From contig BPGA01000001.1 of assembly GCA_026002795.1 (NCBI GenBank), positions 30,001 to 62,000 on the forward strand: 32,000 bases of DNA. The letters run 5' to 3'. Source of the DNA: Candidatus Saccharimonadota bacterium (GTDB lineage Archaea; Nanobdellota; Nanobdellia; Pacearchaeales; GW2011-AR1). The notes beneath the pieces are model-generated. The model was not told the origin of the DNA and made no database searches. It saw nothing but the letters and a program-made list of their open reading frames with translations. Made by a program: the position numbers and the translations under genes. Shown here piece after piece: positions 7,862 to 28,937 of the stretch (positions are counted from its first letter, which is position 1; each line of letters starts with the position of its first letter).

Positions 7862-7993
7862 ACTGATTAGTAAAGAAAAGTTATCAAAATGATTTTCATA
7901 AATTTTTGTAATGTTTAGAGTTGTTGGTTTTTATATAAACAGTAGTTGGCAAAGTTGATGACACCGTCAACTAGATTTGAGGGTTATAGATGT

Positions 7994-9781
7994 TTAACTA
8001 GATTCGTATACCTCTAAGCCTTTTTTGGAAAGCAATACTTTATTCCCGAACTCTGGTTTCTTTCTATGTATTTTTTTGAGCATATAGCCCTCTACAGCAG
8101 CCCAATTACTTGTCGGATAATCAAGCTCTATAGTCTCCTTGAACTTGATGTTATTCAGAATATCTTCAAAATATTTAATAGTACTAGATATTTCTTTTTC
8201 TCTTGATTTAGTTATATCTTGTATATCTCCTAATTTTCTAAGATTTTCTTTATTATCTATCATGAAATGCTTTAATAATCTAAGAAGTGCTCCTATTTCT
8301 CTTGGAGTAAGTTTATCCTTTTCTATCTTTTGGGTATGTAATACTTTTTCAATTATGTCAAAATAATTTTTTATTAAATTAAAAGCGAATTCTGTTCCCT
8401 CTTTACGAATATTCTCATCTTCCTTATAGCCTGAATAAAATGTAGCCAATCCTTCAATTTCTAGACCACCCCTCTTATACTTCTTGTTCAACCTTAAAAC
8501 TCCCCCATATGTAATCACACTAATTATACTTTTTCTCGATTCTCCTCTTTTGAGTGTTGTTTCTTTAAAAGAAAACCTTCCAGAAAAGAACCCTTTCTTA
8601 TCAAGTTTTTTAAATACTTGATACCAAAAATTCTCTTCAGATTCTGGGTCTATTCTTGCCTTTAAGATAAAAGAGAGGTTTGGGTCGACTTTTTCTTGAG
8701 TTTTATTAATCTTATAAAATATTTTCTCCATTTGAAGATATTTTTCTTTTTCATCACCTTTTTTAAGAAATATTAGAGTAACTAAAATATGACTATTTAA
8801 CTTATTACCCTTAACAAAAGAAAAAAATCTATGTTGACCGTCTATTATTATTAGAGAATTATACTCATCAAAGAATGTTATTTCTTCATCAGTAGAATTG
8901 TAGAACTCTTTTTCGTCCTTGTAGATATCGGGGTTCAAAAAGATAATAATATTATTTGGAAAAGTTTCACTTTTCTCTAAGTATTCATTTATTTTTTCTA
9001 GCCTATTGGATTTAATCATTCTTTGGAATCCTTTTTTGTCGTACTTTTGAGCCATCCTTAAGACAGTAACATAATCAACAATCTCCTCTACTCTTGGTGA
9101 GAAGGAGTACATGATCATATCTTCTTTAGATAAAGGTAATCTTGTTACCTTAAATGGATTAGACCTTGCTGGTTTATCTGTTTTAGAGGCACTTTTTTTC
9201 TCTAAATCTGATTTTCTTACATTCAAAAAATACATAAAATCATTGAAAAGTATTGTTTTATTTAATCTGTTTAATACTTCAAGAAAATATTGGTGGATGT
9301 CTTTATCGATTATGATATTATTTGATTCTTTTTGCTTTAAGAGATATTCCTCGTCAATTTGCTTATTTGGAGCAAAAAATACCTTCTTTAATATTGGTTT
9401 GTAGTCTGAAGAGAAGGAACGTATATGATCTTGTATTTCTTTAAGTTTATTATTTGCTAATTTCTCTTTTTCCGCAATGTTCTTTTTTCTTTTTTTAGTT
9501 ACTTTAATGCTCAGGTCTAATGCCTCAACTTTATCAACTCTGTCAAGTTTGTCAAAGAACTTTTCTAATTCTTTCATTACCTTTTCACTTCTACCTTCAT
9601 TAATTCCAATCAAAAAAACTAAATTTTTATGTAAGATTACAGCATCTATTTCTCCATCTTTACTTTTATCTCTTAATTTTATTTCATGGCCTATTTTGGG
9701 GTCATCAAAAATATAAATTTTAAACCCTAAGTTATTAGCAAGATTTCTTAGTTCATTATTTGCTGAATAACCTCTTCTCAT
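7994..9781 (-). CDS. DGQHR-domain (DndB-like, ParB/Srx-fold) protein with a ~200-aa N-terminal extension
   Basis: 595-aa ORF with an exact 'DGQHR' motif (aa 314-318, nt 8828-8842). Upstream is 'GFQRMIKSNRLEKINEYL...FPNNIIIF' and downstream 'FYKINKTQEKV', matching the DndB/DGQHR family pattern. Its ATG overlaps the MTase stop (ATGA at 9778-9781). Confidence 0.8.
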   Translation of the reverse strand: MRRGYSANNELRNLANNLGFKIYIFDDPKIGHEIKLRDKSKDGEIDAVILHKNLVFLIGINEGRSEKVMKELEKFFDKLDRVDKVEALDLSIKVTKKRKKNIAEKEKLANNKLKEIQDHIRSFSSDYKPILKKVFFAPNKQIDEEYLLKQKESNNIIIDKDIHQYFLEVLNRLNKTILFNDFMYFLNVRKSDLEKKSASKTDKPARSNPFKVTRLPLSKEDMIMYSFSPRVEEIVDYVTVLRMAQKYDKKGFQRMIKSNRLEKINEYLEKSETFPNNIIIFLNPDIYKDEKEFYNSTDEEITFFDEYNSLIIIDGQHRFFSFVKGNKLNSHILVTLIFLKKGDEKEKYLQMEKIFYKINKTQEKVDPNLSFILKARIDPESEENFWYQVFKKLDKKGFFSGRFSFKETTLKRGESRKSIISVITYGGVLRLNKKYKRGGLEIEGLATFYSGYKEDENIRKEGTEFAFNLIKNYFDIIEKVLHTQKIEKDKLTPREIGALLRLLKHFMIDNKENLRKLGDIQDITKSREKEISSTIKYFEDILNNIKFKETIELDYPTSNWAAVEGYMLKKIHRKKPEFGNKVLLSKKGLEVYESS

Positions 9782-10629
9782 TTTTTCAACCTTTTCAAAC
9801 CTAATTTAATGTAATCAGGATTTATCTCAATCCCTATTGAATTTCTATTTAATTCTTTTGCAACAGCAGATAAAGTGAATGTGCCTGCAAATGGATCTAA
9901 TAGTATGTCATTCTTGTTGCTGCTTACTTTAACGAATATTCTCAAAAGTTCTAAAGGTAACTGGCATGGATGTTTTTTATTAAATCTGTCCTTTGAAACA
10001 TTCTTAAGCAAATTTATATCTAACACATCAATCATACCTTTACTTAATTCAATTAGGTCCAAAAATCTTAATAAATCATAAGAAGTTCTTCCTTTTGAAC
10101 CGTTTTTTATACGTTCTTTTATTTTCTTGACTTCTGGATTTTTATAGTGCTGAATTATATTCTCTCTATTGAAAGTGTATTTGTTGCTTTTTGTAAAAAA
10201 TAGGATTGATCGTTGACTTCTTGTAAAATTCTTTTTAGAGTGTCCTATATTTGTCGGGTAGTGCCATGTTATCCAACGCCTAAATTTAAGCTTTAATTCA
10301 TCTTCTATAAATGGTAGAAGCCTTGCATTAATTTCAGGATAGTTAATTAAATAGAAAGATCCTGTGTTTTTTAACAACCTAGCACATTCTTTTAACCATA
10401 TCCTACATTCAGCAAAATATTCTTCTTTTCTTTTTCTGTCTTTAGAATAAGGACCATAATCTAAACCAACATTATATGGCGGATCAGTAATAATAAGATC
10501 TATATTGCATCCTTTTATATTTTTTAAAATTTTAAGGGAATCACCATTGATGAGAAAATGAGATGTATTATTAAATCTTACCTCTTTTATTTTTCTCTTA
10601 TTTATATTTAACAATATTGAATCCTTCAT
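9778..10629 (-). CDS. Beta-class DNA methyltransferase (N6-adenine or N4-cytosine; N6_N4_Mtase family)
   Basis: 283-aa ORF with motif IV 'ITDPPYNV' near the N-terminus and 'HPCQLPLELL...DILLDPFAGTFT...SIGIEINPDY' (motif I region) at the C-terminus, i.e. beta-class order. There are ATGA overlaps with both neighbours. Confidence 0.9.
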   Translation of the reverse strand: MKDSILLNINKRKIKEVRFNNTSHFLINGDSLKILKNIKGCNIDLIITDPPYNVGLDYGPYSKDRKRKEEYFAECRIWLKECARLLKNTGSFYLINYPEINARLLPFIEDELKLKFRRWITWHYPTNIGHSKKNFTRSQRSILFFTKSNKYTFNRENIIQHYKNPEVKKIKERIKNGSKGRTSYDLLRFLDLIELSKGMIDVLDINLLKNVSKDRFNKKHPCQLPLELLRIFVKVSSNKNDILLDPFAGTFTLSAVAKELNRNSIGIEINPDYIKLGLKRLKK

Positions 10630-13600
10630 TTTATCACGATAGGTTTTTCTTTTTCCTCACTAACAAATCTTTCTATCATTTTCTGAAAATCATCAAACCA
10701 ATACTTCTTGTAACCTTCTGAGAGTTTATTTATATCCTCTGTAAATAGGAAGAGATGAACCTGCACATTAATTTTATCTTTTTGGAAGGTCTTTTTTTCA
10801 TCCTTTTCTTCAAAAATTAATTTATATCCATCTACTTTGTACTCATAATCCGTATGCTTCGTTCCCTTCGGATCAGCAAAAATTATGAAATACTTATTTT
10901 CTTTTTTAAGCCAAAAAATAAAATCTGGTTTGAATTTCTCTATTTTATTATGTGCTTTGTTGTAGTATGGAATAAAAATATTATCAAGGTATTCGTCTAA
11001 TTTACAAAACATCCACCAATCAAATGATTTAAGGATGTTATTTTCTTGTTTTATGAAATTCTCTAATTGTTCAATAAATCTTTTTTCACTTTCTACATTA
11101 ATTATGTGATTAATATAATCTATCTTTTCTTTTTCAGAAAGGATAATTGGGATGTAGTAATGGTTTAATAAATTTTTTATTCTTAATGTAGAACCATTTG
11201 TTATGAATTCTTCTTCATTAGACATCTTACTTAATTCTTTGATTTTAGAAGTATAATCATCTACACTTATCTTTTTGGCTTCCAATAACTTCTTTAATTC
11301 AGACTCTTGTTTTGAAGGATCTCTATATATCTTTACCTTATTTATTAACCCTTTCAATTTCTGCAATTCTCTTGCTTCTAGAGTTACTCTAATTCTCTTA
11401 AAGTGTACTATCTCATCTTCCACTTGCTTAAATTTATCTAAATCTTGCAAAGTTATGTTAACATGACTCATCAGTTTAGCCAATTGAGAATAAACATCGC
11501 TTCCTTTAAATGTTAAGAAATTACCATTTTTAAGAAAATCTCTTGATTTTTCAAGAGTTTTTGGATTAACATAATTTTCGTGAGAGAATAACGCATAAAT
11601 TAATCTTTCATCACCTATCCACTCTATGAAAGCTGTTAAAAGTTGCCTGTTTCCTTCAAATTTAGGAAGCTTTCCAACAGATACCACTTCTTTTCTATCT
11701 TTGTAAACAGGAATGAGTAAAATTTTATCTTTAATCTCTTTATTTTCTTCTAGCTCTATCATCTCTCCAGAAGCTTTTCTTTCATATTTTATGCTTTCCA
11801 GTATTACCTGTACATTCTTTTTATTAGTTCCAAGAACAAACAAGGTTTCTATTAAAGAGATATCTTCTTGCTCTAACTTTGAATATACTTCTTTATCAAT
11901 AATATCATTTTCTCGCTTTAATGGAAGGAGCCTTTTTCTTTTTCCTTTGATTGGCTGAATTCTTACTCCCCTACCAATTGACTGAGTAACGTATTTTTTA
12001 GCATCTCCCTTACCAATATTTATGAAAATCATTACATTTGGCCTGTTAGAATCCCACCCTTCATAAAAGGCTCTTGACCCCATTAAGATATTAACAAAAT
12101 TATTATCATGGCTTATTGTTCTAAAATAACTTTTATTCTCATAAGATTCATTAATCTCATAATTTTCCAATTTATCTTTAAGCCATTGACTAATATCTCC
12201 AATCTTTATTAAAGCAAATGGCTGATCAGACGTTTTTAGTTTAAATATAAGCTCTTCTCTATTTTGTGGAATTTTTATTACTTCAATATTTCCGAAAGAT
12301 GTAGCATTAAAAATCTGTTTAAGCAAGTCTTTTAACTTTATTTTCTTAACATCATTTTCGTTAAACAAAACGCTTTCATTCCCGAACACATATCTTGGAT
12401 GTTCTGAAAGCTCTTCAATTATCTCTTTTTTTGCCTCTTCTAATAAAGTTTTGTCAACTTTCCCCACCCCAATTTTTTCAAGTTCCTTAAAGAATATTTC
12501 TAAATCTGATTCTTCTACATTTACAGAATTTACTAACGCAACCAATAATGGGTTATGGTAATGTTTTCCTTTCAAATTATTGTCTATATTGCTTTTAGCT
12601 ATTTTGCTTAAAGTAAGAAGTATCAAAGATTTTAGGACAATCTTTTGTTTGTTTTTATCGCTAAAATCTCCTTTGTCTTTAAAAGCATTTAATTCTTGCT
12701 GTGAGAGATAAACATTCTTTCCATAACCCTTTCTAATAAAAGTGTCTAAGTTGAAGTTATAAGTAGTTGTTATTATGTCCCATACATCAGTAAATGTTGC
12801 AGAAAAATTGAATAAAAAACCATTTCTTGTTAATAAGGAGTAATAAAGCTGTCTTTTAGAATCTTCTTTATCTCCTTTATGTGCCTCATCTAATAAAACG
12901 AACCATCTTCCATTATTTTCTATATCCTCAAATCCCAGAAGTTTTTCTTTGGTTTCTTCTGAAATTAAATCTGAACGGTAAATGAAAATGTTGATATGTT
13001 CTTTAAATGCTAAAATATTTCCTCTTTTAACATCGTCATATTTGTTTAACTCCCATACTTTTATTTTTCTTGTTGCTTTCTTATTAAATTCATCTATATG
13101 TTGTTTTATCTGATCAATTAAATCTTCTCTATGTGTTAAGATGAGAATGTCATTATCTGGGATTAATCCAGATTGTTTTAGTTTGTCGAGTAATTCTATT
13201 AATTTTATTAAGATAACTGTTTTTCCTGAACCTGTTGCCATCCAAAAACTCATTCTATTAACAAAATGCAAGAAATGTATCTTTTCATGAGAATTTTCTT
13301 CAATTATCGGATAGTATTGCTTTAATTTGCTAAAAAGCAATTTATTTGTCTTTCTAGTTGTTATACCAAGAGAATCTGCTAGTTCTCTTTCAAACTTTCT
13401 TATCTCATTAAAGAATTTCTTTTTTCTTTCAATATTTGCTAATTCATCTTCCCCTTTCTGAAATTTTTGTAAAGAATTAAAATAATAATGGAGAAGTTTT
13501 ATAGCATTCTTAACCGCTTCTTGTTGATAATCAAATAGTGATATGTTGTCTGAGAAAGATGATAAATTTATCCTTAACCATTCTGAAGGAAGACTGTCAA

Positions 13601-13658
13601 AAGAGATTTCTTCTGCAATATCTTGGTACAGCAAGGGTGCTTTTTGTTCTTTAGGCAT
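10626..13658 (-). CDS. Res-like SF2 (DEAH) helicase fused to a C-terminal PD-(D/E)xK-like nuclease motif
   Basis: 1010-aa ORF with 'FDYQQEAV', Walker A 'MATGSGKT' (aa 140-147), 'LLDEAHKG' (DEAH at 257-260), 'FSAT', 'FYEGWDSNRPNV' and 'QSIGRGVRI'. The C-terminal 'KPDFIFW...x...FADPKG' (nt 10863-10928) looks like a restriction-endonuclease core. Confidence 0.85.
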   Translation of the reverse strand: MPKEQKAPLLYQDIAEEISFDSLPSEWLRINLSSFSDNISLFDYQQEAVKNAIKLLHYYFNSLQKFQKGEDELANIERKKKFFNEIRKFERELADSLGITTRKTNKLLFSKLKQYYPIIEENSHEKIHFLHFVNRMSFWMATGSGKTVILIKLIELLDKLKQSGLIPDNDILILTHREDLIDQIKQHIDEFNKKATRKIKVWELNKYDDVKRGNILAFKEHINIFIYRSDLISEETKEKLLGFEDIENNGRWFVLLDEAHKGDKEDSKRQLYYSLLTRNGFLFNFSATFTDVWDIITTTYNFNLDTFIRKGYGKNVYLSQQELNAFKDKGDFSDKNKQKIVLKSLILLTLSKIAKSNIDNNLKGKHYHNPLLVALVNSVNVEESDLEIFFKELEKIGVGKVDKTLLEEAKKEIIEELSEHPRYVFGNESVLFNENDVKKIKLKDLLKQIFNATSFGNIEVIKIPQNREELIFKLKTSDQPFALIKIGDISQWLKDKLENYEINESYENKSYFRTISHDNNFVNILMGSRAFYEGWDSNRPNVMIFINIGKGDAKKYVTQSIGRGVRIQPIKGKRKRLLPLKRENDIIDKEVYSKLEQEDISLIETLFVLGTNKKNVQVILESIKYERKASGEMIELEENKEIKDKILLIPVYKDRKEVVSVGKLPKFEGNRQLLTAFIEWIGDERLIYALFSHENYVNPKTLEKSRDFLKNGNFLTFKGSDVYSQLAKLMSHVNITLQDLDKFKQVEDEIVHFKRIRVTLEARELQKLKGLINKVKIYRDPSKQESELKKLLEAKKISVDDYTSKIKELSKMSNEEEFITNGSTLRIKNLLNHYYIPIILSEKEKIDYINHIINVESEKRFIEQLENFIKQENNILKSFDWWMFCKLDEYLDNIFIPYYNKAHNKIEKFKPDFIFWLKKENKYFIIFADPKGTKHTDYEYKVDGYKLIFEEKDEKKTFQKDKINVQVHLFLFTEDINKLSEGYKKYWFDDFQKMIERFVSEEKEKPIVIK

Positions 13659-14070
13659 TTTTAATCATCTTCCGAATTTCTTTAATTAAAATATTGCATT
13701 TTTCTATTGCTTCTTTGCATGTTTCAAAGTCCATTCTTTTTCCATAATAGGTTAATGAATTTCTTTTATATCTTAAGTCATCAAATAAAATAAATAAATC
13801 TTCTCTCCCCAATTTATCTTTTAAAAAATAGCCAATACAAATATGATTTAATATGTTATACCCTTCTCTAAATGCAATTGCTTGTAAAATCTCAACTATA
13901 GAAGTATAATAATCCTCAAATACAAAATTGCAGTTCTTTTCTGTTATTTCTTTAACTAATCCTATTCTATCTTCTGCTGTTTCAATTAAAGATTTTGCTC
14001 TCTCATAATCAGAAGTCGTTTTTTTAACTGATTGATTTTCAATACAATCATTCCAAGATTTTTCTTTCAT
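13651..14070 (-). CDS. HEPN-domain protein (partner of the upstream nucleotidyltransferase)
   Basis: 139-aa all-helical ORF. It sits directly downstream of a minimal NTase, which is the classic MNT-HEPN pair order. 'DDLRYKRNSLTYYG' lies where the HEPN Rx4-6H motif is expected, with Tyr in place of His. It overlaps the MNT stop (ATGA) and the helicase start (8 nt, ATGCCTAA). Confidence 0.65.
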   Translation of the reverse strand: MKEKSWNDCIENQSVKKTTSDYERAKSLIETAEDRIGLVKEITEKNCNFVFEDYYTSIVEILQAIAFREGYNILNHICIGYFLKDKLGREDLFILFDDLRYKRNSLTYYGKRMDFETCKEAIEKCNILIKEIRKMIKNA

Positions 14071-14600
14071 TTAAACACCTCAACATAGTTATTTAAAACA
14101 ATTCCGTTTAAAATATTATTAGCTAAATGAGGATTTTTAATTTCTTTAATTGTTTTATGCCTAAAAACCTGAATTTCTCTTTTCAATATATTTTCAAACT
14201 TTTCAAGATTAATTTCCTTTTTAGATGGTGTTTCAACATACAAGTCAATATCGCTTTTTTCATTATCTTCTCCCCTTGCATAAGATCCGAAAACAATTAT
14301 TACAGGATTGCTTAATTCTACTTTTAAGAAATTAACAAGGCCAGAAGTGTAAAGTGATTTTATGTTAAACAGCTTTTTCTCTAAAATAAAATTTTCATTG
14401 CTTCTGTTTGCTGTATAAAATGTCACGCTTCCTATTTTTTGCATTGTTAAAATTCCTTCTTTTTCAAGCTCTTTGCAGTATCTTATAACAGATGGTAGAG
14501 GTAATTTTAAATTTCTCTCAATTTCTCTAACCCTGAGTTTAGCAGTCGGATTAATAAAAAAATGTTCCTTAATGGTTTCTTTGATATTTTTCCTTTTCAT
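14067..14600 (-). CDS. wHTH-fused minimal nucleotidyltransferase (MNT, NTP_transf_2-like)
   Basis: 177-aa ORF with an N-terminal winged-helix-like 'VREIERNLKLPLPSVIRYCKELEKEGIL' and the NTase signature 'FGSYARGEDNEKSDIDLYV' (GSx10-SDxD). Confidence 0.85.
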   Translation of the reverse strand: MKRKNIKETIKEHFFINPTAKLRVREIERNLKLPLPSVIRYCKELEKEGILTMQKIGSVTFYTANRSNENFILEKKLFNIKSLYTSGLVNFLKVELSNPVIIVFGSYARGEDNEKSDIDLYVETPSKKEINLEKFENILKREIQVFRHKTIKEIKNPHLANNILNGIVLNNYVEVFK

Positions 14601-14613
14601 ATGATAATAAATA

Positions 14614-14632
14614 ATATCAATTGATATTTAAA
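14614..14632 (-). promoter_or_regulatory. Putative promoter/operator of the MNT-HEPN-helicase-MTase-DGQHR operon
   Basis: On the minus strand, 'TTTAAATA' (complement of 14625-14632) is centred about 28 nt upstream of the MNT ATG, implying a leaderless or near-leaderless transcript. It overlaps a perfect 14-bp palindrome, ATATCAATTGATAT (14614-14627). Palindromes of this kind are not rare in AT-rich DNA, so only the position is suggestive. Confidence 0.3.
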
Positions 14633-14663
14633 GTTATTGGTTGTTAAGATTTTCTTACTTGTG

Positions 14664-15857
14664 TTAAGATTTTTTAACACTTTTATATGTCAAAAGGTTT
14701 TTTGTAGGTTGGGTGTTTTTATCATTCCTTGTTTTATTTAAAAATACTTTTAAAATTAAATCTTTTCCATCTTGATTTATTTCTATGTTTTTTATTCTTC
14801 CTAACTTACTCAAAAACTCACTCTCAATTTTATTTCGTATTGTCCTTATAAGAGATTCTTTAATTACTCCGTCATTCAAATCATAGAGAGAAGAATAGTC
14901 TTTTAATACAAATTCAAATTTTCTCTTTTTGTTATTTATGGAACGCTCTAATTCCTTTACCATTTTTTCATCTAATACTCTTTTTATTTCTCCTCGGTCT
15001 TTTAATGTAATTGTTTTGAAAAATTCTGTTTTTAGTTTATTTTTATTTTGCACTATGCTCAATAAAATAGCCCTTCTTTTTTTCCATCTTTTCAACCAAG
15101 TTTCTAATGAGGAAATCGGCATTTTTTGATCAATAACATAAAAAGTTTTGTTAATATTTATTGCAACGGCCACATGACAAGGTATTAAAACAAAGTAAAT
15201 TTTGTTTTTGGGATATAAATTTAGTAACAAAGCAGATGTTAATTTAGCGTAGTCTCTACAAACAGCCAATCTATATTTAATTATTTCATTGGTAGATAAT
15301 GAAAATTTGAATGTGTCTTTAAGTTTAAACTCTGGATGATTTAATTTCAAGATTCTATATTTTAAGTTTAAATATAAAATTAAGGAGATTATTCCTCCAG
15401 AAGAAAGTGATAAAATAACTATTAAAAATAAATTAAATACTTTGATGGCAGAAATTGGATTTATAGTAATCAAAATTACTATAAAAGATAGAATATATGA
15501 AGTCAGGATAACCAGATAATTAAGAAATATATAAAAACTAAATACTATCCCTACAATTATTAAAATCAGTATTATTGCCCTTAACAGGATAGAGGATGGA
15601 AGTAGGATATATAATCCTGCGATAGAAAAAAATGAAAGAAAGACTAACAATATGAACATCAACCATCTCTCTTCCCAAAAATCTACATTTTTATCCTGCC
15701 ACTCTAAAATATTATTTAATGTTTCAGAATCGTTTTTTCCTTTTAATCTATTTGCTAACTTTTTAACTTCTTTATCATCAATATCTTCTTTTGTTGGAAG
15801 AAATTGTTTTTCTTGGAATTTTCTAAACAATCTAAATTTTAATAAAAATTCAAACAT
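14664..15857 (-). CDS. Multi-pass membrane protein with a C-terminal transglutaminase-like cysteine-protease core
   Basis: 397-aa ORF with about 4-5 TM helices (aa ~65-165). These are followed by 'AVCRDYAKLTSALLLNLYP' (Cys motif), 'IPCHVAVAI' (His) and 'YVIDQK' (Asp), which is the order of the transglutaminase-like triad. Confidence 0.65.
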   Translation of the reverse strand: MFEFLLKFRLFRKFQEKQFLPTKEDIDDKEVKKLANRLKGKNDSETLNNILEWQDKNVDFWEERWLMFILLVFLSFFSIAGLYILLPSSILLRAIILILIIVGIVFSFYIFLNYLVILTSYILSFIVILITINPISAIKVFNLFLIVILSLSSGGIISLILYLNLKYRILKLNHPEFKLKDTFKFSLSTNEIIKYRLAVCRDYAKLTSALLLNLYPKNKIYFVLIPCHVAVAININKTFYVIDQKMPISSLETWLKRWKKRRAILLSIVQNKNKLKTEFFKTITLKDRGEIKRVLDEKMVKELERSINNKKRKFEFVLKDYSSLYDLNDGVIKESLIRTIRNKIESEFLSKLGRIKNIEINQDGKDLILKVFLNKTRNDKNTQPTKNLLTYKSVKKS

Positions 15858-15859
15858 TT

Positions 15860-16276
15860 TTATCTCCCATCCAAAGCATCATTTACTAATTTATCTGCAT
15901 ATTGAATAAACCGATTATTTCTTTTGACATGATTGTAAATGACTTTCTCAAATGCCTTTTCTCTATCTTTTAGAATATAAAACAATTCTCTTAATTTCTC
16001 ATTCTTTATTCTATATCTTCCACTTAATTGCCTTACAACCAATTCACTATCAAGAAAACATCTAATAGTTCTCCTACAATGTGCAGTAGCCAATTCTAAA
16101 GCTTTAATTAATGCTTTATATTCTGCTTGATTATTAGTGCATTCTCCAATACACTCTTTATATTCAGCTATTTTATTTTTGTTTTCGTCAAAGAAAACTA
16201 TACCTATCGCTGCAGGTCCCGGATTACCTCTTGATCCTCCATCGGTATAAACATATAAGTTTAATATCTTAGTCAT
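15860..16276 (-). CDS. rnhA: Ribonuclease HI (type 1 RNase H, archaeal short form)
   Basis: 138-aa ORF with 'YTDGGSRGNPGPAAIG' (Asp1), 'NNQAEYKALIKALE' (Glu), 'FLDSELVVRQL' (Asp) and 'YADKLVNDA' (Asp), giving the DEDD RNase H pattern. Confidence 0.85.
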   Translation of the reverse strand: MTKILNLYVYTDGGSRGNPGPAAIGIVFFDENKNKIAEYKECIGECTNNQAEYKALIKALELATAHCRRTIRCFLDSELVVRQLSGRYRIKNEKLRELFYILKDREKAFEKVIYNHVKRNNRFIQYADKLVNDALDGR

Positions 16277-16277
16277 T

Positions 16278-18776
16278 TTACCACCAAATCAAACCTTTAA
16301 TTAAATTAAAATCAATCTCGTCAAACCTAATCCTTTCACCACCTTCCAAAACAACAGCATTTTTCTCAATCTTTCTTATTGATTTTCCAGTTATGCAAGA
16401 GATTGTTTCTGCTAAATCTATGTTAGGATAAATCTTGTTAAAATCAATTTTGATTTTGTTGTTTTTATAATCTAATTCCATTGCTTCTAAAAACTTTAAA
16501 TCTTTCAGGAAGACATATTGCTGATAGATTGTTTTATCTGAGAAAACAACGAACGGATGGCTTTCTTTATAAACTGCTTTCTTTAAAGTCTGTTCGTATT
16601 GTTCTAAATCATAGTATTTGAAAAATCCACCTGCTTTTTTCTCATTGTATTTTTCTTTAACATCTTTTTCTTTTGAAATTCCAGATTTATCATAAGCTAA
16701 AACTTTTTTCATTCTTGGCAAAACCACCGTCCAAAAATGCTCTCCCATTTCAACTCCAATCCATTTTCTTTTAAGTTTATGTGCTACTGCTGTTGTTGTA
16801 CCTGAACCAAGGAAGAAATCCATAACTAAATCGCCTTCGTTGGAAGTTGATTCTATGACACGCTTTAAGAGGATTTCGGAGTTTTCGGTTGGAAAGTTCC
16901 AATCTTGAGTATACCCGGAATATCATTCCACCAATTTATATATCAAAAGATTCTCTTTTTATTTGTATATTCACACGCCACTCATCTTTTCCACATAGGG
17001 CCTGTTTTTCACTAATTCCTTCATAATGTTTATATCCCAATTTTTCAAACTACCTAAGTTCTTTTTTATTTATAAGATCATTGATTGTTTCTTGCGAAAA
17101 CCAACCCGTCTTGCTGTTGGTGGTAAAATTTTCTTTTCCAAAAAATTTCTAGCTTCATATTTTCCCTGAGTATCTGCATGAATGCCATAAATCTTCTTCA
17201 TTTCTTGTTTTCTCTATTCTCGGTGGATTTATTATAACTTTTCTTCTGAATTTTTAGAATAAAAATATAAGTTATCATAATCAACTGTAAAAGTTTTTGG
17301 TTCTTCAAAAGTCTGTTTTGTACCTCTCATCACAATCTCATTCCTAAAATTCTCCTCGTCAAAAATCTGATTCATTAATAACCTTACATACATGTTGCCG
17401 TTGTAGTCGCATCTAACAAAAATGCTTCCTGTATCTTTTAATAAATCTCTTGCCAAAGTTATTCTGTTTCCAAGTAGAGTTATCCAGGTTGAATCTTTGT
17501 ATTTGACATTATAAAGATAATCGGCATCTTGTTCTTTGTTAAACGGCGGATCAATGTAAATTGTCTGCACCTTCTCTTTGAATTTCGGCAGGATTGTCTT
17601 TAATGCTTGGTAATTTTCGCTATGGATTAGCCAACCATCTAATTCCTCATCTAAATTGTCAAACAAGGAAAGAATTTCCAATTTAATGTTTTCATCAAAA
17701 TATTTTGTGTCTATTGGTAAATGTTCATATTCCTTGCTAATCTCTTTCCCCCTAAGTGTTGTTGTGAATAACTTTTTTCTGTCAAAATCCTCTAAAATTC
17801 CTAACTCTCGCCATTCTTTAATCTGTTCAGAAAGACCATTGTGTTTTATTATTTCCTCTATCACCCTGATCCCGTCTTTTTTCTTAGCTATTCTATCCAA
17901 AGTAATAACATAATTGCTGTTTAAAACAAACTTTGGCTTGTTCCAGATTTTGACTAACTCGTCTTCGAATTGTGCAACAAAATCAATGACCTTGTAAGCA
18001 ATTTCCTTTAGCGCTTTCAATTCTTTCAATCTTTTCTCTGAAAAATCACTTTCATCATCAAACAAATAATTTTTCAACCATAAATCAAACTGTTCTTTTA
18101 AGAAAACTTCGGCATTTTTGTTAATGAAGAAGTCTACTTCGTTTTGCTTTTCAAAAATTCTGAATATTTTTGTTAATTTTTCTTCATCCAGGAAGATTTT
18201 TTTCTTTTTGAATGTTCTAAGAATCTCCTCTGTTTTTGTTTTTCTACCTCTTTCAGAATAAAAAACAATGAAAGTTATTTCTTTATCTTTAATGCTCTTT
18301 AATTCATAGATTATTTCTCTCTTCTCATTGCCTTTTTTATGCTCTAACTTAGAAACATCAAAATGTATTTTGTAATTAACTCCTTCAGCGTCAAAATCAA
18401 TTGTCAAATTATTCCATAGCTTATCTGTTTTGACATAATAAAGCATGTGGGTTTTCCAGAATAAAGCAACGTCCTTCTGGTTAGTATATACCCTTTCATA
18501 AACTTTAGATTTTAAAGGAGTATAACTAAAATAAATGCTTCCTGATTCAGAAAAATATGTTTTAAAGAAGCTGTAAAGCTTGTCAAATAATTCTTCTCTG
18601 AATTCTGGAAAATCTTTTGTTTTTTCTTCAATGTCCTTAACTAACTCTTTAAAAATTACATCAAAATAAGCTGATTTTATTCTCATTAAATTGATAAAAC
18701 CGGATTCTCCTTCTATTTTAGCACCTATGAAAATATCCTTCAACTTATCAAAAAATAATTTTTCTTTCTGATTCAT
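16278..18776 (-). pseudogene. Type III Mod-like adenine-specific DNA methyltransferase, disrupted
   Basis: The N-terminal ORF (17232-18776) carries 'IYIDPPFNKEQDADYLYNVKYKDSTW...FDEENFRNEIV'. The C-terminal ORF (16278-16823) starts inside motif I, 'DFFLGSGTT...WIGVEMGEHF'. The 16824-17231 segment still encodes recognisable Mod sequence ('KILPPTA', 'WFSQETINDLI', 'WWNDIPG', 'NFPTENSEILLKRVIESTSNEGDLVMDFFLGSGTT'), but only across three frames. It is interrupted by stops at 17232-34, 17229-31, 17214-16, 17050-52 and 16936-38. Confidence 0.85.
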
Positions 18777-19435: not shown

Positions 19436-20759
19436 ATGAAATCAGACCCCACTAATAAAAGTAAAGAGAAAGAACAATTTAAATCTATCGTTAAAGATAG
19501 TTCTGGTAGGTTTGCTAAAACTGAAAACCTAAACATTTTTTGTAGATTCTGTGGTTCTAAGAATGTTGTTAAGTTTGGTTATAACATTACAAAGAAAGGT
19601 AAGAAAGCAAGATACAAATGCAAGGATTGTAATGCTAAGTTCACTCCAACAACAAAGCTGATAAAACAGATCAAATTCAAGTCAAATCATAAGGATATTG
19701 AAAATACAAAGACCAAAGAATTGAGAAAATTATGCAAATTGATAAAGAGAACAATTTATCCTTTCTTGGATTTTAAGCTTCATTATACTGCTAAATATGA
19801 TACAAAGAAATTCTTGGATTTACTGACTCATGTAGCAATGAATCATGATTTCACTCATAATGGTTCTCAGACATTCAGGTTTGTAATGAAAGAAAATACA
19901 CCTGCTTCCAATACATTACTTTATCATATCAGGAAGTTTGATACTCGGGAATTAAAGAGATGCTTTTAGGAAAGCATTTGAAGAAATCTTTAGAACAGCA
20001 AAGAAACATAACGTTTTTAAGAAAAGAAAATTAGATGTTGCTGTTGATTTACACGATTGGCTTTATTATGGTAACAAAAATGACTTTATGGTCTGTGAAA
20101 CAAAGCCACAGAAAGGAACTTCTCATTGTTTTAGATTTGCTACTATAAACATAGTTGAGAATGGAAAAAGGTTTACTTTATTGGCTTTGCCAATGCATGC
20201 TTTTGACAATAAGCATGATGTTCTAAATAAATTGCTAAGTTATGCCAAAAGTAAAATCAATATAAGGAATGTATATGTTGACAGAGGTTTCTTTAATGTT
20301 AAATGTATAGAGGTTTTTGAAAAACAAAAAGTAAAATGGTTAATGCCTGCTGTCAGGAACAGAGCAATAAAGAAACTAATGAAAGAATATGATTCTCCTA
20401 AAGTATTAGATTATGTAATGTGAAGAAAGAATTTTGATCAAGTTAAATTCAAACTTGTTATTGTCAATGACCAAGATGATGTAAAAAGAGTATTTGCTAC
20501 AAATCTTAGAGTTACAGAAGATAATGCTAAAATTCTATTTAATGAATATGGCAAAAGATGGGGTATTGAAACTTCTTACAGAGTTAAGCAGGACTTTAAA
20601 GCAAGAACAACATCAAAGAGATATGTGGTTAGGTTCTTTTACTTTATGTTCTCCGCCTGTCTTTATAATCTTTGGATATTGGCTAACATTCTTGTCGGTT
20701 TAGCAATATTGAAGTTTATCCCAAAAGAGCATTCATTACAGCCAAGATGTTTGGAGTAA
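19436..20759 (+). mobile_element. Degenerate IS element: IS4-superfamily (ISH3-like) DDE transposase pseudogene; element ends not identified
   Basis: An N-terminal zinc ribbon 'CRFCGSKN...YKCKDCNAKF' is followed by the DDE motifs 'VAVDLHDWLYYG', 'VYVDRGFF' and 'YGKRWGIETSYRVKQDF'. These are readable only by joining frames: there is a frameshift within 19956-19969 and an in-frame TGA at 20421-20423. The final stop is at 20757-20759. Confidence 0.7.
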
Positions 20760-24232: not shown

Positions 24233-25867
24233 ATGAGTTTAAAGAATAAATTTTGGTTTTTTTTCTTTAGCTTAACTATTTTAATCTTTAGTTTAGGTTC
24301 TATAAATGCACAAGATGAATTTCAGAATTTTTTAGATTCAACACCAATTATTATCACTATTGGACAAAACAGCTCTCAACTTAATTTTAGTTTAGACACT
24401 TCTTCTAGATCTTGGGATAAACAAAACATACTTATACAAAATAAAAGTGTTGGGGGTATTACAATAAACAATTTGGATATCTCATTTAATATCTCAAAAA
24501 TTTTAGAAGATATTAATGGTGTGGTTGAGATAGAAAGAGGGAGTTATTACCCTCAATTTAAAAAACTTAGTGTGTCAGGTGAAAATCCGACAATTAAAGT
24601 AGGTGTAATAAATATAACAGGCTTGAATATTTCTGGTTCTGGTTGGTTATCAACAAAAAACGTCTTTGAACTTATTCTTGGTAGTTTTGATTCACGTTTA
24701 TCTAATTTAAGTGATATAAGTAATATAAACAACTACCTACAAGAGAATCCTCTTTCTGAACAGTCACCAACCCATATCATATTTACTAAAAATGGAACAA
24801 ATTATTCTATATTATCGGACAAAGGTTACGGAGAAGTTAAAGAAGAGTGGAAAGATGAAATAAGAAATATAATTAATGAAAGTGTTCAGCAAATAAACAT
24901 TAAAAATATCCTCAATGATGTTCTTCCTATATTAGAAAGTAAACCAGAATTCCAAGAAATTTGGAATAAATTAGATTTAAATTTTACAGTTACCGACATA
25001 GATTTGTCTATTTTTGATATAAATGCTTCTGCTTCAAATCTTACAGAGATAAAACTTGAAGATGGAAATTATTTAATTCCAGTTACACTAACAAAAGATT
25101 CTAAAACATACACCAAACAAATTCTTTTAATTATTCATGGAATAGAAAATAAAGATACAGTTGGTTCTGTAACAGAAACATACGTTCCTACAAATCCAGA
25201 AGTTTCTAAATACTTAGCTAGCATTACAGGTCTTCAAAAAGAAGTTTTTGTATCTGTTTCTGTTTTTGATGTTGTACCTTTTGGAGTTTCTTTACCTCCA
25301 AACACCGGAAAAGTTATTAAGTTTTTAGAAATTAATACTAACTCTTCTAATGGAACAATTAACTTTAAGGTGCCTGTTGATAAAGTTACGAATCCATCAT
25401 TAGTTAGCCTTTATGTTTTAGAAGGAACGAACTGGGTTGAATTACAAACAAGCCCACCTAATTTAAATGGTTTATTTTATGAGTATTCTGCATTTACTCC
25501 GCATTTCTCAACATTCATGATAATGGAAAAAATTATTCAAACAGGCATAACAGAAACAGGAGGTAGGGCTAGAGGTTCTCCTAGGTTTGTTATAGAAGAA
25601 CCAGAAGCACCTACTCAAACAACACAGCAGCCTTCTTCTAGCCCACAACCAATTCAAGCAAGCCCGCCTCCACAAACACCAACTAATGGTGGCTTCATAG
25701 CAACAATAACTGGTGCTATAATAGGTGCATTAACAAGCCCAACTGGCCTTTTTTCTCTTTTAGTTATTTTAATTGCGGTTATTATCGCTGTATTAGTAAT
25801 TAGAAATTTGTTCCCTTTGTCAAGAACAAAAAAATTAAATGACAAAAGGGGTGAAGATGATAAATGA
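24233..25867 (+). CDS. Secreted surface protein with a PGF-pre-PGF-like domain, P/Q/S-rich stalk and C-terminal TM anchor
   Basis: 544-aa ORF with signal peptide 'FWFFFFSLTILIFSLGSINA'. 'PPNTGKVIKFLEINT...INFKVPVDKV...LVSLYVLEGTNWVELQTS...YEYSAFTPHFSTFMIM' matches the archaeal PGF-pre-PGF domain pattern. It is followed by 'PEAPTQTTQQPSSSPQPIQASPPPQTP' and the TM segment 'LFSLLVILIAVIIAVLVI'. Confidence 0.7.
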   Translation: MSLKNKFWFFFFSLTILIFSLGSINAQDEFQNFLDSTPIIITIGQNSSQLNFSLDTSSRSWDKQNILIQNKSVGGITINNLDISFNISKILEDINGVVEIERGSYYPQFKKLSVSGENPTIKVGVINITGLNISGSGWLSTKNVFELILGSFDSRLSNLSDISNINNYLQENPLSEQSPTHIIFTKNGTNYSILSDKGYGEVKEEWKDEIRNIINESVQQINIKNILNDVLPILESKPEFQEIWNKLDLNFTVTDIDLSIFDINASASNLTEIKLEDGNYLIPVTLTKDSKTYTKQILLIIHGIENKDTVGSVTETYVPTNPEVSKYLASITGLQKEVFVSVSVFDVVPFGVSLPPNTGKVIKFLEINTNSSNGTINFKVPVDKVTNPSLVSLYVLEGTNWVELQTSPPNLNGLFYEYSAFTPHFSTFMIMEKIIQTGITETGGRARGSPRFVIEEPEAPTQTTQQPSSSPQPIQASPPPQTPTNGGFIATITGAIIGALTSPTGLFSLLVILIAVIIAVLVIRNLFPLSRTKKLNDKRGEDDK

Positions 25868-28800
25868 AAAATTTTGTGAATTTTCTAGTAATTTTTGTTT
25901 TAACAGTTGTATCTATAAATTTGATTAGTGCTCAAACTGTTTCTATTGAATTTAATGTAAAAGACGATTCTGGAAATCCTTTAAAAGAATCATTAATTAT
26001 AATCCAAGGAATAACCAATACAAATTTTAGTCAAACAAAAATAACAGATTCTAATGGAAAAGCTATTTTCAATCTAAACAAAAATGAGCTTTTTTCGTAT
26101 ATTATTTATAAAATTTCTTATGAAGAATTAAGCGGAAGTATATTTACAAATCAAGATAAAGTAATAAATATTGTTTTAAAAAAACTACCTCCAGACCGGT
26201 GGTATTTTTATAGAATAAATAACGGAGAATTAGATTTTAGTTTTAAAAGTTTAGATAATGATACAAATTATAATCCTAATGAATACATAAAGAGCTCAAT
26301 TGAAGTAAAAAATATAGCTGGAAAAAGAATTCAGCTTTTGAATGAAAAAAGTTTTTTTAGAACAATAGATGCAGATACAGAAAAAGTTCTTAGGGCTTGG
26401 GGTAGGTTTGATTTTGGGGGTGGAAAAAATTTAACAGAAGTGATTTTAAAAGAAGGTGGTTGGATAAAAGCAAGTTTAATTGAAGAGAAAGCAGAATTTT
26501 GTGGTAGTAATATAATAATTACTTATAATAACCTAAGAATAGAGCTTTCTGGAAGTGAATCTATTTGTTTAGAAGATTCTCAAAGTTATAACAAAATACC
26601 AGAATGGATTTTAAAAAACAATTATAAGATGAAGCTTGATTACTTTTATAAAATAGATAACATAGAAAGAACAATAAGTTTTATATCTCAACCCTTTTTT
26701 ATTAACAATACAGAATGGAAACCTGAAATAATCTCTTTTCCACAAACAGAGATTTCTGTTGAAGAAGAATGGGTTTATCAAATAAAACTTAAAGAGTATC
26801 CTGAAAGTTATTCTCCTGTTTTAAATCTCATTAATTATGCTCTTATGGATTATCCTGAAGGAATGAGTATTGATAAAGACAAAGGAATTGTTAAATGGAA
26901 ACCAACAAAACCAGGGGAGTATAATGTAACAGTAAGAGCATATCATCAATACTTTGAAAATAATTCAGATAAAATAGCTTTTTTTGATCAGAGCTTTTCA
27001 TTAAAAGTAAAACAAGAAAAGCAAAACAATCCCCCAATTGCATACAACATAAACATAACAACAGAAGAGAATAAGCCAGTAACTTTCAATTTAAATGCAA
27101 CTGATCCTGAAAATGATCCTTTAACTTTTATAATTGTAAGCAATCCATCAAATGGCTCAATTTCCAATTTTAATTCTTCTACAGGAGAAATTACTTACAC
27201 ACCAAATCCAAGTTTTTTTGGAACAGATAGCTTTAGTTTTAAGGCTAATGATGGAAAATTAGATAGCAACATTGCAATTGTAACAATAACAGTAAATCCT
27301 ATACCAAAAAACAAACCACCTGTAATAAAATCTCAGCCTGTGACAGAAGTTAATGAAAATTCTCATTACAGTTATCAAGTTATTGCAGAAGATGAAGATG
27401 GAGATTCTTTAACCTACTCTTTAGAAGCTCCTTCTTGGCTTTCAATAAGCTCTACTGGTTTAATTTCAGGAATAGCTCCAGAAGTTTCAGAGGATGTTGT
27501 TTTTGATGTAATTTTAAGAGTTAGTGATGGAAAAGATTTTTCTGAGCAGAAGTATCAGTTGAAAGTTGTTAATGTAAACAAACCACCTGTGATAAAATCT
27601 CAGCCTGTGACAGAAGTTAATGAAAATTCTCATTACAGTTATCAAGTTATTGCAGAAGATGAAGATGGAGATTCTTTAACCTACTCTTTAGAAGCTCCTT
27701 CTTGGCTTTCAATAAGCTCTACTGGTTTAATTTCAGGAATAGCTCCAGAAGTTTCAGAGGATGTTGTTTTTGATGTAATTTTAAGAGTTAGCGATGGAAA
27801 AGATTTTTCTGAGCAGAAGTATCAGTTGAAGGTTGTTAATGTAAACAAACCACCTGTGATAAAATCTCAGCCTGTGACAGAAGTTAATGAAAATTCTCAT
27901 TACAGTTATCAAGTTATTGCAGAAGATGAAGATGGAGATTCTTTAACCTACTCTTTAGAAGCTCCTTCTTGGCTTTCAATAAGTTCTACTGGTTTAATTT
28001 CAGGAATAGCTCCAGAAGTTTCAGAGGATGTTGTTTTTGATGTAATTTTAAGAGTTAGTGATGGAAAAGATTTTTCTGAGCAGAAGTATCAGTTGAAAGT
28101 TGTTAATGTAAACAAACCACCTGTGATAAAATCTCAGCCTGTGACAGAAGTTAATGAAAATTCTCATTACAGTTACCAGGTTATTGCAGAAGATGAAGAT
28201 GGAGATTCTTTAACCTACTCTTTAGAAGCTCCTTCTTGGCTTTCAATAAGTTCTACTGGTTTAATTTCAGGAATAGCTCCAGAAGTTTCAGAGGATGTTG
28301 TTTTTGATGTAATTTTAAGAGTTAGTGATGGAAAAGATTTTTCTGAGCAGAAGTATCAGTTGAAAGTTGTTAATGTAAACAAACCACCTGTGATAAAATC
28401 TCAGCCTGTGACAGAAGTTAATGAAAATTCTCATTACAGTTATCAAGTTATTGCAGAAGATGAAGATGGAGATTCTTTAACCTACTCTTTAGAAGCTCCT
28501 TCTTGGCTTTCAATAAGTTCTACTGGTTTAATTTCAGGAATAGCTCCAGAAGTTTCAGAGGATGTTGTTTTTGATGTAATTTTAAGAGTTAGTGATGGAA
28601 AAGATTTTTCTGAGCAGAAGTATCAGTTGAAGGTTGTTAATGTAGAGAAAAAAGAAGAAAAGAGAGAAATAGAAGAAAAAAGATTTTCATTTAGGTCAGT
28701 TGAACCAGATGATTTTGAATTTAACATTTATTTTAATCAATTTTCTCTGCCAGAACAGAAGTCTATTCCAATTTCAGAAAAAAGCACTATTAAAAAAAGT

Positions 28801-28932
28801 TTTTTAAAAGAAGAAGATGAAGAGAAAATAAGAGAAATAGCTGTATTGTTTATCTTTTTAAATTTAAATTCTGCTTTGGTTGTTTTGTTTGTTTTAATTA
28901 AAAAAGGATTTATATTTAAAAGAGCTATTTGA
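25864..28932 (+). CDS. Large surface adhesin-like protein (CarboxypepD_reg-like N-terminus, cadherin/Ig-like domains, 5x He_PIG-like repeats, C-terminal TM anchor)
   Basis: 1022-aa ORF whose ATG overlaps the upstream stop (ATGA); the signal peptide is 'FLVIFVLTVVSINLISA'. 'NNPPIAYNINITTEENKPVTFNLNATDPENDPLTF...GTDSFSFKANDGKLDS' is a cadherin-like/Big domain. It is followed by five identical 89-aa units, 'KPPVIKSQPVTEVNENSHYSYQV...', and the C-terminal TM segment 'IAVLFIFLNLNSALVVLFVLI'. Confidence 0.85.
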   Translation: MKNFVNFLVIFVLTVVSINLISAQTVSIEFNVKDDSGNPLKESLIIIQGITNTNFSQTKITDSNGKAIFNLNKNELFSYIIYKISYEELSGSIFTNQDKVINIVLKKLPPDRWYFYRINNGELDFSFKSLDNDTNYNPNEYIKSSIEVKNIAGKRIQLLNEKSFFRTIDADTEKVLRAWGRFDFGGGKNLTEVILKEGGWIKASLIEEKAEFCGSNIIITYNNLRIELSGSESICLEDSQSYNKIPEWILKNNYKMKLDYFYKIDNIERTISFISQPFFINNTEWKPEIISFPQTEISVEEEWVYQIKLKEYPESYSPVLNLINYALMDYPEGMSIDKDKGIVKWKPTKPGEYNVTVRAYHQYFENNSDKIAFFDQSFSLKVKQEKQNNPPIAYNINITTEENKPVTFNLNATDPENDPLTFIIVSNPSNGSISNFNSSTGEITYTPNPSFFGTDSFSFKANDGKLDSNIAIVTITVNPIPKNKPPVIKSQPVTEVNENSHYSYQVIAEDEDGDSLTYSLEAPSWLSISSTGLISGIAPEVSEDVVFDVILRVSDGKDFSEQKYQLKVVNVNKPPVIKSQPVTEVNENSHYSYQVIAEDEDGDSLTYSLEAPSWLSISSTGLISGIAPEVSEDVVFDVILRVSDGKDFSEQKYQLKVVNVNKPPVIKSQPVTEVNENSHYSYQVIAEDEDGDSLTYSLEAPSWLSISSTGLISGIAPEVSEDVVFDVILRVSDGKDFSEQKYQLKVVNVNKPPVIKSQPVTEVNENSHYSYQVIAEDEDGDSLTYSLEAPSWLSISSTGLISGIAPEVSEDVVFDVILRVSDGKDFSEQKYQLKVVNVNKPPVIKSQPVTEVNENSHYSYQVIAEDEDGDSLTYSLEAPSWLSISSTGLISGIAPEVSEDVVFDVILRVSDGKDFSEQKYQLKVVNVEKKEEKREIEEKRFSFRSVEPDDFEFNIYFNQFSLPEQKSIPISEKSTIKKSFLKEEDEEKIREIAVLFIFLNLNSALVVLFVLIKKGFIFKRAI
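27313..28647 (+). repeat. Five head-to-tail 267-bp (89-codon) tandem repeats inside the adhesin gene
   Basis: The units are 27313-27579, 27580-27846, 27847-28113, 28114-28380 and 28381-28647. The internal differences I found are 27324 (a vs g), unit offset 137 (c in units 1-2, t in units 3-5), 27792 (c), 27831 and 28632 (g), and 28176 and 28179 (c, g). In addition, the last codon of unit 5 is gag rather than aac. Confidence 0.97.
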
Positions 28933-28937
28933 TTAAA

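Follow-up and report, generated by a model that had tools for sequence, protein, structure and literature searches.

Do three overlapping genes for a helicase-nuclease, a DNA methyltransferase (MTase) and a protein with a DGQHR motif make up one defence system, or do they belong to different ones? The genes lie in a stretch of 32,000 nucleotides (nt), positions 30,001 to 62,000 of contig BPGA01000001.1 in assembly GCA_026002795.1 (Candidatus Saccharimonadota bacterium), and this whole stretch is referred to here as the window. The window has a G+C content of about 28% and is archaeal, with a thermosome, a diphthamide synthase and DPANN-like relatives. All three genes are on the minus strand: a Res-like helicase-nuclease of 1010 amino acids (aa) at 10626-13658, a beta-class N6_N4 DNA MTase of 283 aa at 9778-10629, and a DGQHR-family protein of 595 aa at 7994-9781. 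A preliminary description of the window had taken them for a triad akin to a restriction-modification (R-M) system, one that would tell self from non-self by methylation, with the DGQHR protein loading or regulating a Type III-like motor-nuclease. The window translations confirm the three open reading frames (ORFs), the ATGA on the minus strand at both junctions (10626-10629 and 9778-9781) and each of the quoted motifs, namely ATGSGKT, DEAH, SAT, QSIGRGVR and PDF...DPKG in the helicase, DPPY and DPFAGTFT in the MTase, and DGQHR in the third protein. The single unit did not fare as well. The locus is very probably a composite island, in which the MTase and DGQHR genes form a conserved unit and the helicase is part of a separate Type III system.

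The overlaps between the genes are weak evidence of a unit, because gene overlap is habitual in this compact genome: 7 of the 18 same-strand neighbour pairs in the window overlap, functionally unrelated pairs included.

The methyltransferase and DGQHR genes as a conserved pair

The 595-aa protein has relatives in 73 clusters, which are full-length at about 590 aa, share 31-96% identity with it and come from DPANN archaea (GW2011_AR15, Aenigmatarchaeota), from Atribacteria and from Chitinophagaceae. When 1.84 billion representatives were searched with a profile, 31 clusters matched at E <= 1e-30 and as many as 694 at E <= 1e-10, and many of the matches are full-length, at about 575-600 aa. Gene neighbourhoods were compared in 18 non-redundant close loci, which hold a family member at 40% identity or above, and in six non-redundant distant loci, with DGQHR relatives at 24-30% identity. 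An N6_N4 MTase gene stands directly upstream of the DGQHR gene, on the same strand and usually overlapping it, in 16 of the 18 close loci. All six distant loci have a divergently oriented MTase gene, and their other neighbours vary (TrwC relaxase, Fic, Schlafen-type helicase, AAA ATPase). Linkage to an MTase is obligatory across the loci examined: neither the close nor the distant set holds a DGQHR gene without an MTase gene nearby. In 12 other loci the MTase directly upstream is an orthologue of the window enzyme itself, at 59-87% identity.

The window MTase is a normal-sized, ordinary M.MboIIA-like enzyme. It matches Pfam N6_N4_Mtase (4e-50) and PADLOC MTase_II (1e-61), and DPPY and DPFAGTFT, its catalytic and S-adenosylmethionine (SAM)-binding motifs, are intact. 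The closest solved relative is M.MboIIA (6.5e-26), whose 260 aa are a comparable size, so that the earlier view of a minimal enzyme with little room for a target-recognition domain can be set aside. Enzymes of this kind act on their own.

Among the partner MTases there are three kinds that are not orthologous to one another, and their motif is either DPPY or SPPY. Type A, to which the window enzyme belongs, has 283-304 aa and DPPY; type B has 427-556 aa, SPPY and a conserved C-terminal extension; and type C has 321-337 aa and SPPY. Type C occurs with a BglII-family endonuclease in locus L033 (6329-9779), where the MTase (337 aa, SPPY) is followed by the endonuclease (204 aa) and then by the DGQHR gene. 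An ortholog of this MTase directly precedes the DGQHR gene in L016, without the endonuclease. In L004 a DpnII R-M system with two MTases adjoins the DGQHR gene, and complete R-M systems are also its neighbours in L006 and L027. DGQHR proteins whose N-terminal domains are equally similar to that of the window protein (55-56%) pair with either type A or type B. The MTase is therefore needed but interchangeable, and the three non-orthologous kinds of partner fit a coupling via DNA methylation rather than a fixed protein complex. A methylation-based role in distinguishing self from non-self is reasonable given this tight and deep linkage; the proposed loading or regulation of a Type III-like motor-nuclease is unsupported.

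Two side observations concern the wider family. In type B MTases (L009, L010, L018, L037, L041, L042) the C-terminal extension is about 170 aa long with a conserved PPLSK(Y/F)G, and this type is common to the close and distant DGQHR clades; it may be the ancestral partner. No relative of the DGQHR family was found in viral contigs, and the plasmid database held only distant DGQHR proteins in other contexts, such as clusters with a radical SAM protein and an ATPase. On an Agrobacterium plasmid (L044, 4578-10777) and on pNL1 (L045, 4473-10657), DGQHR proteins of about 770 and 340 aa are encoded with a radical SAM protein and an ATP-binding protein, and this alphaproteobacterial cluster is a different, uncharacterised context.

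The helicase and a half-decayed Type III system

The 1010-aa helicase has the features of a Res subunit, with superfamily 2 (SF2) helicase motifs and a C-terminal PD-DxK nuclease, and matches Pfam ResIII (1e-17) and PADLOC REase_III (2e-26). Its GSGKT, DEAH, P911-D912 and D929-P930-K931 are invariant in 31 homologues. Sequence and profile searches of the PDB gave no match to EcoP15I Res and no other meaningful match. More than 5,700 database relatives occur across Archaea, all of about 1,000 aa, and their usual context is Mod, then zero to four variable small ORFs, then Res. The helicase follows a Mod, an N6_N4 MTase of 817-869 aa, in L011, in three Methanothermococcus loci (L012-14), in a Woesearchaeota locus (L015) and in L023. 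The helicase of L011 is 95% identical to that of the window in amino acids and 92.8% in nucleotides across the gene. No DGQHR gene is present in L011, L012-14 or L015; L023 has one, in convergent orientation.

In the window the Type III Mod gene is a pseudogene (16278-18776, minus strand). Its N-fragment (17232-18776) matches positions 1-509 of the 816 in the PADLOC MTase_III model PDLC03638 (3.6e-203), and its C-fragment (16278-16823) matches positions 640-816 (1.3e-64). The intact Mod proteins of L011, L012, L015 and L023 can be aligned with this region over its full length. Seven in-frame stops (four TAA, one TAG and two TGA) all fall in codons 514-617, within the hypervariable region between the catalytic and SAM-binding blocks, and there is no frameshift. 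The flanks stay open and are 83-88% identical in nucleotides to L011. The idea that the stop-riddled part is read in another frame or on the other strand was rejected, as no ORF longer than 49 aa exists there.

To judge from these comparisons, the helicase belongs to an ordinary, if decaying, Type III system separate from the MTase and DGQHR genes, with Res intact and Mod a pseudogene. As in Type III R-M systems of the EcoP15I kind, the window Res is an SF2 helicase with Walker A, DEAH and a C-terminal PD-DxK, and its Mod, for which the gene lies upstream on the same strand, is a beta-class N6_N4 MTase whose central region is variable. The window system differs in that Mod is dead, and the archaeal family differs in that Mod and Res are mostly split by variable cargo. 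Four cargo genes lie between the window Mod and Res, encoding an RNase H-like protein, a transglutaminase-like membrane protein and an MNT/HEPN pair.

Helicases are not regular companions of the DGQHR gene. A Res-like helicase is adjacent in only a minority of DGQHR loci, and those that are found belong to two families and lie upstream (as in the window), downstream or convergent. In L008 (4504-11877) and L022 (59-6123) the order is Mod (690 aa), an optional HEPN-like gene (190 aa, with an RNRLQH motif), MTase, DGQHR and a Res of 843 aa with a PD...EIK nuclease, all overlapping. In L034 the DGQHR gene is followed by the 843-aa Res. L019 has Mod, the HEPN-like gene, MTase and DGQHR, and the 360 nt that follow contain no helicase. 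L023 holds a remnant of the 843-aa Res and a convergent, complete Mod-Res pair of the window type. No similarity between the 843-aa Res and the window helicase was detectable by tblastn at 1e-4. The 843-aa family has more than 5,300 relatives, usually in a plain Mod-Res or Mod-ATPase-Res context, and each of the two helicase families exceeds the DGQHR family in size about 100-fold. Because the helicases near the pair are non-orthologous and differently positioned, cargo insertion fits better than a fixed complex, the pair being one kind of cargo among several that settle within Type III operons or next to them. A gene of the COG1479/DUF262/DGQHR family inside a Campylobacter Type I R-M locus has been reported and parallels this pattern (PMC3632139).

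An exchangeable slot behind Res

The independence of the helicase is also seen in L011. By blastn, homology between the window and L011 ends at window position 10658, about 30 nt before the helicase stop codon, and returns just past the DGQHR stop codon, where window 7984-7926 corresponds to L011 15606-15664 at 80% identity. The segment at 7926-7984, which has no strand of its own, is thus the right-hand boundary of the slot. In place of the MTase and DGQHR genes, L011 encodes at 13012-15593 a protein of 346 aa that has a membrane segment at its C-terminus and one of 516 aa that resembles PIWI proteins and prokaryotic Argonautes (pAgo; PADLOC PprPIWI, 7e-9). From its sequence, the replacement pair looks like a short-Argonaute cassette with a membrane effector. 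Comparison led to rejection of the idea that the L011 genes are remote homologues of the MTase and DGQHR genes. No significant hairpin or att-like signal was found at the right boundary of the cassette, where the fold is no better than that of shuffled sequences.

The same slot behind the same helicase is therefore occupied by what are predicted to be two different defence-type modules, MTase-DGQHR in one genome and a pAgo-like cassette in the other. The MTase and DGQHR genes are an exchangeable, horizontally mobile cassette inserted directly after Res. The helicase, MTase and DGQHR genes as one conserved three-gene unit, the claim of the preliminary description, must be rejected on the neighbourhood comparison and on this swap, in that most DGQHR loci have no helicase and L011 has a pAgo-like cassette instead. 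The triad itself is not a new system.

Domain anatomy of the DGQHR protein

The assignment of a DGQHR/ParB fold to the 595-aa protein is upheld both by profile and by structure. The protein scores 82.8 bits against NCBIfam TIGR03187 (DGQHR), over aa 224-502, where the cut-off is 58.85. Its scores against the equivalogs for DpdB (NF041060; 36.8 bits, cut-off 300) and DGQHR_dnd_1 (TIGR04172; 49.4 bits, cut-off 450) are far lower than the cut-offs, and the window protein has no match to Pfam DndB at E <= 0.01. A PDB sequence search with the family returned nothing meaningful. The AlphaFold2 model, built from an alignment of 43 sequences, has a mean predicted local distance difference test score (pLDDT) of 87.6 and a predicted TM-score (pTM) of 0.81. 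It shows three domains: an N-terminal domain (N-domain, aa 1 to about 200), a DGQHR/ParB-type domain (about 220-455) and a helical C-terminal domain (C-domain, about 455-595). The best Foldseek matches of the whole model are ParB N-terminal domains, 5k5a (probability 0.87) and 6sdk, which has CDP bound. The whole model gave only weak multi-domain matches, and the N-domain was therefore modelled and searched alone.

The DGQHR domain is the most conserved of the three, with a mean pairwise identity of 53.6%. Q253-R254, D314-G-Q-H-R318 and F355...N359 are invariant in the 43 sequences, and QR, DGQHR and FxxxN are the three signatures that Machnicka et al. described for DGQHR domains (PMC4619093). 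The C-domain, in which R494, R501 and H505 are conserved, corresponds by position to the helical module of DndB-C, of GmrSD-M and of SspE-M, an equivalence drawn by analogy (PMC12065111).

The N-domain modelled separately has a pLDDT of 89, and almost all of its Foldseek matches have the PD-(D/E)xK fold (AF1548, R2 endonuclease, NucS, Card1, Can2, Cdn1, PfoI, BspD6I, Hjc, Bax1 and Ecl18kI). It is the most variable domain, at 35.7% identity, which suits a reader of DNA. An [E/D]-x-D motif at residues 44-46 is universal. Distant relatives retain a Glu on the next strand, sometimes as E-V-K, and the window clade conserves D26, N53, K133 and D159-K160. Catalysis through a migrated, non-canonical site is possible, as these conserved residues would allow.

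Comparison with known systems

As in a Type II R-M pair, the MTase and DGQHR genes are adjacent, co-oriented and often overlapping, the MTase is of the M.MboIIA/RsrI type, its partner contains a restriction-endonuclease-fold domain, and the pair is mobile and patchy across bacteria and archaea. The differences lie in the partner. The DGQHR protein is 595 aa long and adds a ParB/DGQHR NTPase-type domain and a DndB-C-like helical domain, its endonuclease fold has no canonical ExK, and related DGQHR proteins take non-orthologous MTases.

GmrSD, BrxU and SspE, which combine DUF262 with HNH/DUF1524, and NsnA of the Menshen system share with the DGQHR protein a domain of the ParB superfamily that has QR, FxxxN and, for phosphate binding, DGQ(H/Q)R, followed by a helical domain, as well as fusion to a nuclease-fold or sensor domain and location in defence islands (PMC4619093, PMC12065111). 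These proteins are, however, modification-dependent or work with NsnB and NsnC, and need no cognate MTase. The DGQHR protein has its nuclease-fold domain, which is of the PD-(D/E)xK type, at the N-terminus, and an MTase is always present. The protein has no Pfam match to DUF262 or HNH/DUF1524 and no PADLOC match to GmrSD, BrxU or SspE. Nor is there a PADLOC Nsn match or a conserved ATPase or effector neighbour (NsnB/NsnC) across the loci, so that the likeness to Menshen would be one of domain architecture only (PMC12065111).

With DndB and DpdB the protein shares the DGQHR domain, scored above the cut-off of TIGR03187, and weakly matches the DpdB and DGQHR_dnd_1 models; several of its homologues have a precomputed Pfam DndB assignment. 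It differs from them in its extra endonuclease-fold N-domain of about 215 aa and in having a methyltransferase as partner, and neither the window nor the related loci contain dnd or dpd genes. For the window, the preliminary description was correct on this last point. Across all window ORFs of at least 100 aa, and in the annotated related loci, there is no gene of the dndC, dndD or dndE type (PAPS-reductase-like, SMC-like ABC ATPase, DndE) and none for a cysteine desulfurase, and no TGT-like DpdA gene is among the window ORFs of that length.

The pair as a system is not recognised by PADLOC v2, in which the DGQHR protein is a weak DpdB match only. The theme of ParB, DGQHR or DUF262 domains that are fused to nucleases and linked to R-M systems is already published (PMC3632139). 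For an MTase paired with a protein that joins a restriction-endonuclease (REase) fold, a DGQHR domain and a helical domain, the searched literature gave no description beyond general statements. The MTase-DGQHR cassette is probably an undescribed R-M-like defence module, found in archaea and bacteria.

A proposed restriction-modification-like mechanism and its alternatives

If the cassette works as an R-M-like module, the MTase would mark host DNA as self, and the DGQHR protein would be its restriction or sensor partner, with the variable endonuclease-fold N-domain reading DNA. The ParB/DndB-type DGQHR domain would be a switch that binds and hydrolyses nucleoside triphosphate (NTP), in the manner of GmrSD, SspE and Menshen NsnA. 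Host DNA would be protected by its methylation, and unmethylated invader DNA, such as that of a phage, would be attacked, either from a non-canonical site in the N-domain (D26, E44-x-D46, K133, D159-K160) or by the ParB-type domain itself. This mechanism is proposed because the MTase is obligatory yet replaceable, because of the domain analogy to GmrSD, SspE and NsnA, and because of the defence-island setting and the equivalence of the slot with that of the pAgo-like cassette. Analogies in the literature are the published theme noted above (PMC3632139), DUF262 as an NTPase sensor in control of a nuclease and NsnA with its REase-fold sensors and DndB-C-like helical domain (PMC12065111), and a DndB-like protein able to bind both ATP and GTP (PMC12704722). 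The statement as a whole, that the composite island holds two independent systems and that the cassette acts in an R-M-like manner, is about as likely to be right as wrong. Tentatively, the pair could be an unnamed two-gene class of R-M, with a ParB/DndB NTP switch fused to a degenerate endonuclease-fold reader in a protein that tells unmethylated DNA from methylated, partners of the N6-methyladenine (m6A) or N4-methylcytosine (m4C) type, and either non-canonical cutting or, in Type III operons, recruitment of Res; in this full form the proposal is doubtful.

Several observations weigh against an R-M-like cassette that is independent of the helicase. The Foldseek matches of the N-domain are each weak (E values of 0.01-1, TM-scores of 0.2-0.4). 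The window protein and its clade have G-I-N in place of the canonical E-x-K, so that the N-domain may be a DNA-binding sensor only and not the cutter; the inactive REase domains of Menshen NsnA have likewise been proposed as sensors (PMC12065111). The DGQHR genes of L033 and L004 accompany R-M systems that already have a classical endonuclease, and an accessory role fits these equally well. Unrelated MTases are the partners of DGQHR proteins that share 55-62% identity, which is awkward if MTase and DGQHR protein have to read one and the same target. Type III-like Mod/Res operons often enclose or adjoin the pair in the closest subclade, and some cooperation of the pair with Res is conceivable. 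Given the classical endonucleases of L033 and L004 and the missing ExK, accessory and sensor roles stay in play.

In the best surviving of the alternatives, the DGQHR protein is an accessory or regulator on the modification side, in the manner of DndB or DpdB: an NTP-dependent ParB-type clamp with a dead endonuclease-fold reader, which tunes or targets the MTase. The lost ExK and the neighbouring R-M systems of L033 and L004 would both suit such a role, and DndB and DpdB are the nearest profile relatives. DndB is an ATP-modulated repressor of dnd (PMC4507180), and DpdB is an ATPase that helps DpdA insert the base (PMC12839542). Fusions of ParB folds to MTases are common in phages (PMC12704722). 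A specific physical partnership is, however, hard to reconcile with the exchange of three unrelated MTase kinds among DGQHR proteins that remain 55-62% identical. M.MboIIA-like MTases, as is well established, need no helper. The N-domain also keeps the invariant acidic residues D26, D46 and D159, and the cassette sits in the same slot as a pAgo defence cassette. On this balance an accessory role is unlikely.

Rather than being the partner of the MTase, the DGQHR protein could be a modification-dependent nuclease of the Type IV kind, like GmrSD, SspE or BrxU, which would act against foreign modified DNA and travel with MTases and R-M systems as a complementary layer. The architecture parallels that of GmrSD and SspE, with ParB-type NTPase, helical and nuclease-fold domains (PMC12065111, PMC4619093). 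Genes of the GmrSD type are often embedded in BREX and R-M loci (PMC12839542, PMC3632139), and four of the loci examined (L033, L004, L006 and L027) have a complete R-M system beside the DGQHR gene. Such enzymes need no cognate MTase, however, and here one is adjacent in every examined locus, usually translationally coupled, and is replaced rather than lost from locus to locus. With the absence of HNH/DUF1524 and of PADLOC matches to these families as well, a Type IV-like nuclease is less likely still.

Least likely of all is that helicase, MTase and DGQHR protein are one system, in which the DGQHR protein senses or loads DNA and hands it to a Res that is kept to serve the pair: an intact Res beside a dead Mod, the ATGA overlaps, the fully overlapping Mod...Res operons of L008 and L022 (in part also L034 and L019), the Res remnant and second Mod-Res pair of L023, and an N-domain without ExK, to which an external nuclease would be useful, are outweighed by the many helicase-free loci, by two variously placed helicase families that share no similarity by tblastn, are some 100-fold larger than the DGQHR family and are usually found in plain Type III Mod-Res, by the pAgo-like cassette behind the same helicase in L011, and by the commonness of overlaps in this genome.

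Other cargo and neighbouring genes

The MNT/HEPN pair between Mod and Res (13651-14600, minus strand) overlaps the start of the helicase gene by 8 nt. The MNT-like nucleotidyltransferase (14067-14600, minus strand; NTP_transf_2, 4e-10; PADLOC PDC-M05A, 7e-16) has an N-terminal winged helix-turn-helix (wHTH) and, with the small HEPN-like protein (13651-14070, minus strand; PADLOC PDC-M05B, 9e-6), corresponds to the PADLOC candidate system PDC-M05A/B. The pair is cargo between Mod and Res and lies outside the MTase-DGQHR finding. A similar NTP_transf_2 pair adjoins the DGQHR gene in the archaeon GW2011_AR15 (L001, 11840-12759). The other two cargo genes, at 14664-16276 on the minus strand, encode a transglutaminase-like (DUF553) multi-pass membrane protein and an RNase H/RVT_3-like protein.

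Related loci carry other ORFs between Mod and Res: one of 303 aa in L012 (5086-5997), one of 270 aa in L015 (5196-6008), and four small ones in L011 (8116-9969), among them a wHTH protein and two paralogues. None of these has a Pfam or PADLOC match or resembles those of the other loci.

Elsewhere in the window, a short ORF just past the Mod gene (20088-20423, plus strand) has a weak match to a DDE transposase (1.4e-4) and is possibly a relic at the edge of the island. Three overlapping genes of 544, 1022 and 391 aa lie at 24233-30104 on the plus strand. The middle one encodes a large protein with immunoglobulin-like repeats of the He_PIG/Big_9/cadherin kind, which is probably a cell-surface protein, and the two flanking genes have no Pfam match.

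Implications

In DPANN-like archaea, Type III operons serve as docking sites. The slots between Mod and Res, and after Res, hold interchangeable defence cassettes of the MNT/HEPN, HEPN-like, ATPase, pAgo-like and MTase-DGQHR kinds, and are a useful place to look for further systems. Should the MTase-DGQHR cassette prove to work as a restriction system, the known restriction partners of DNA methylases would gain a ParB-fold NTP switch. The ParB-superfamily branch of DndB and DpdB, until now associated with exotic modifications, would then be connected with plain base methylation, and the cassette would offer a small, tractable two-gene model for how DGQHR domains read the modification state of DNA.

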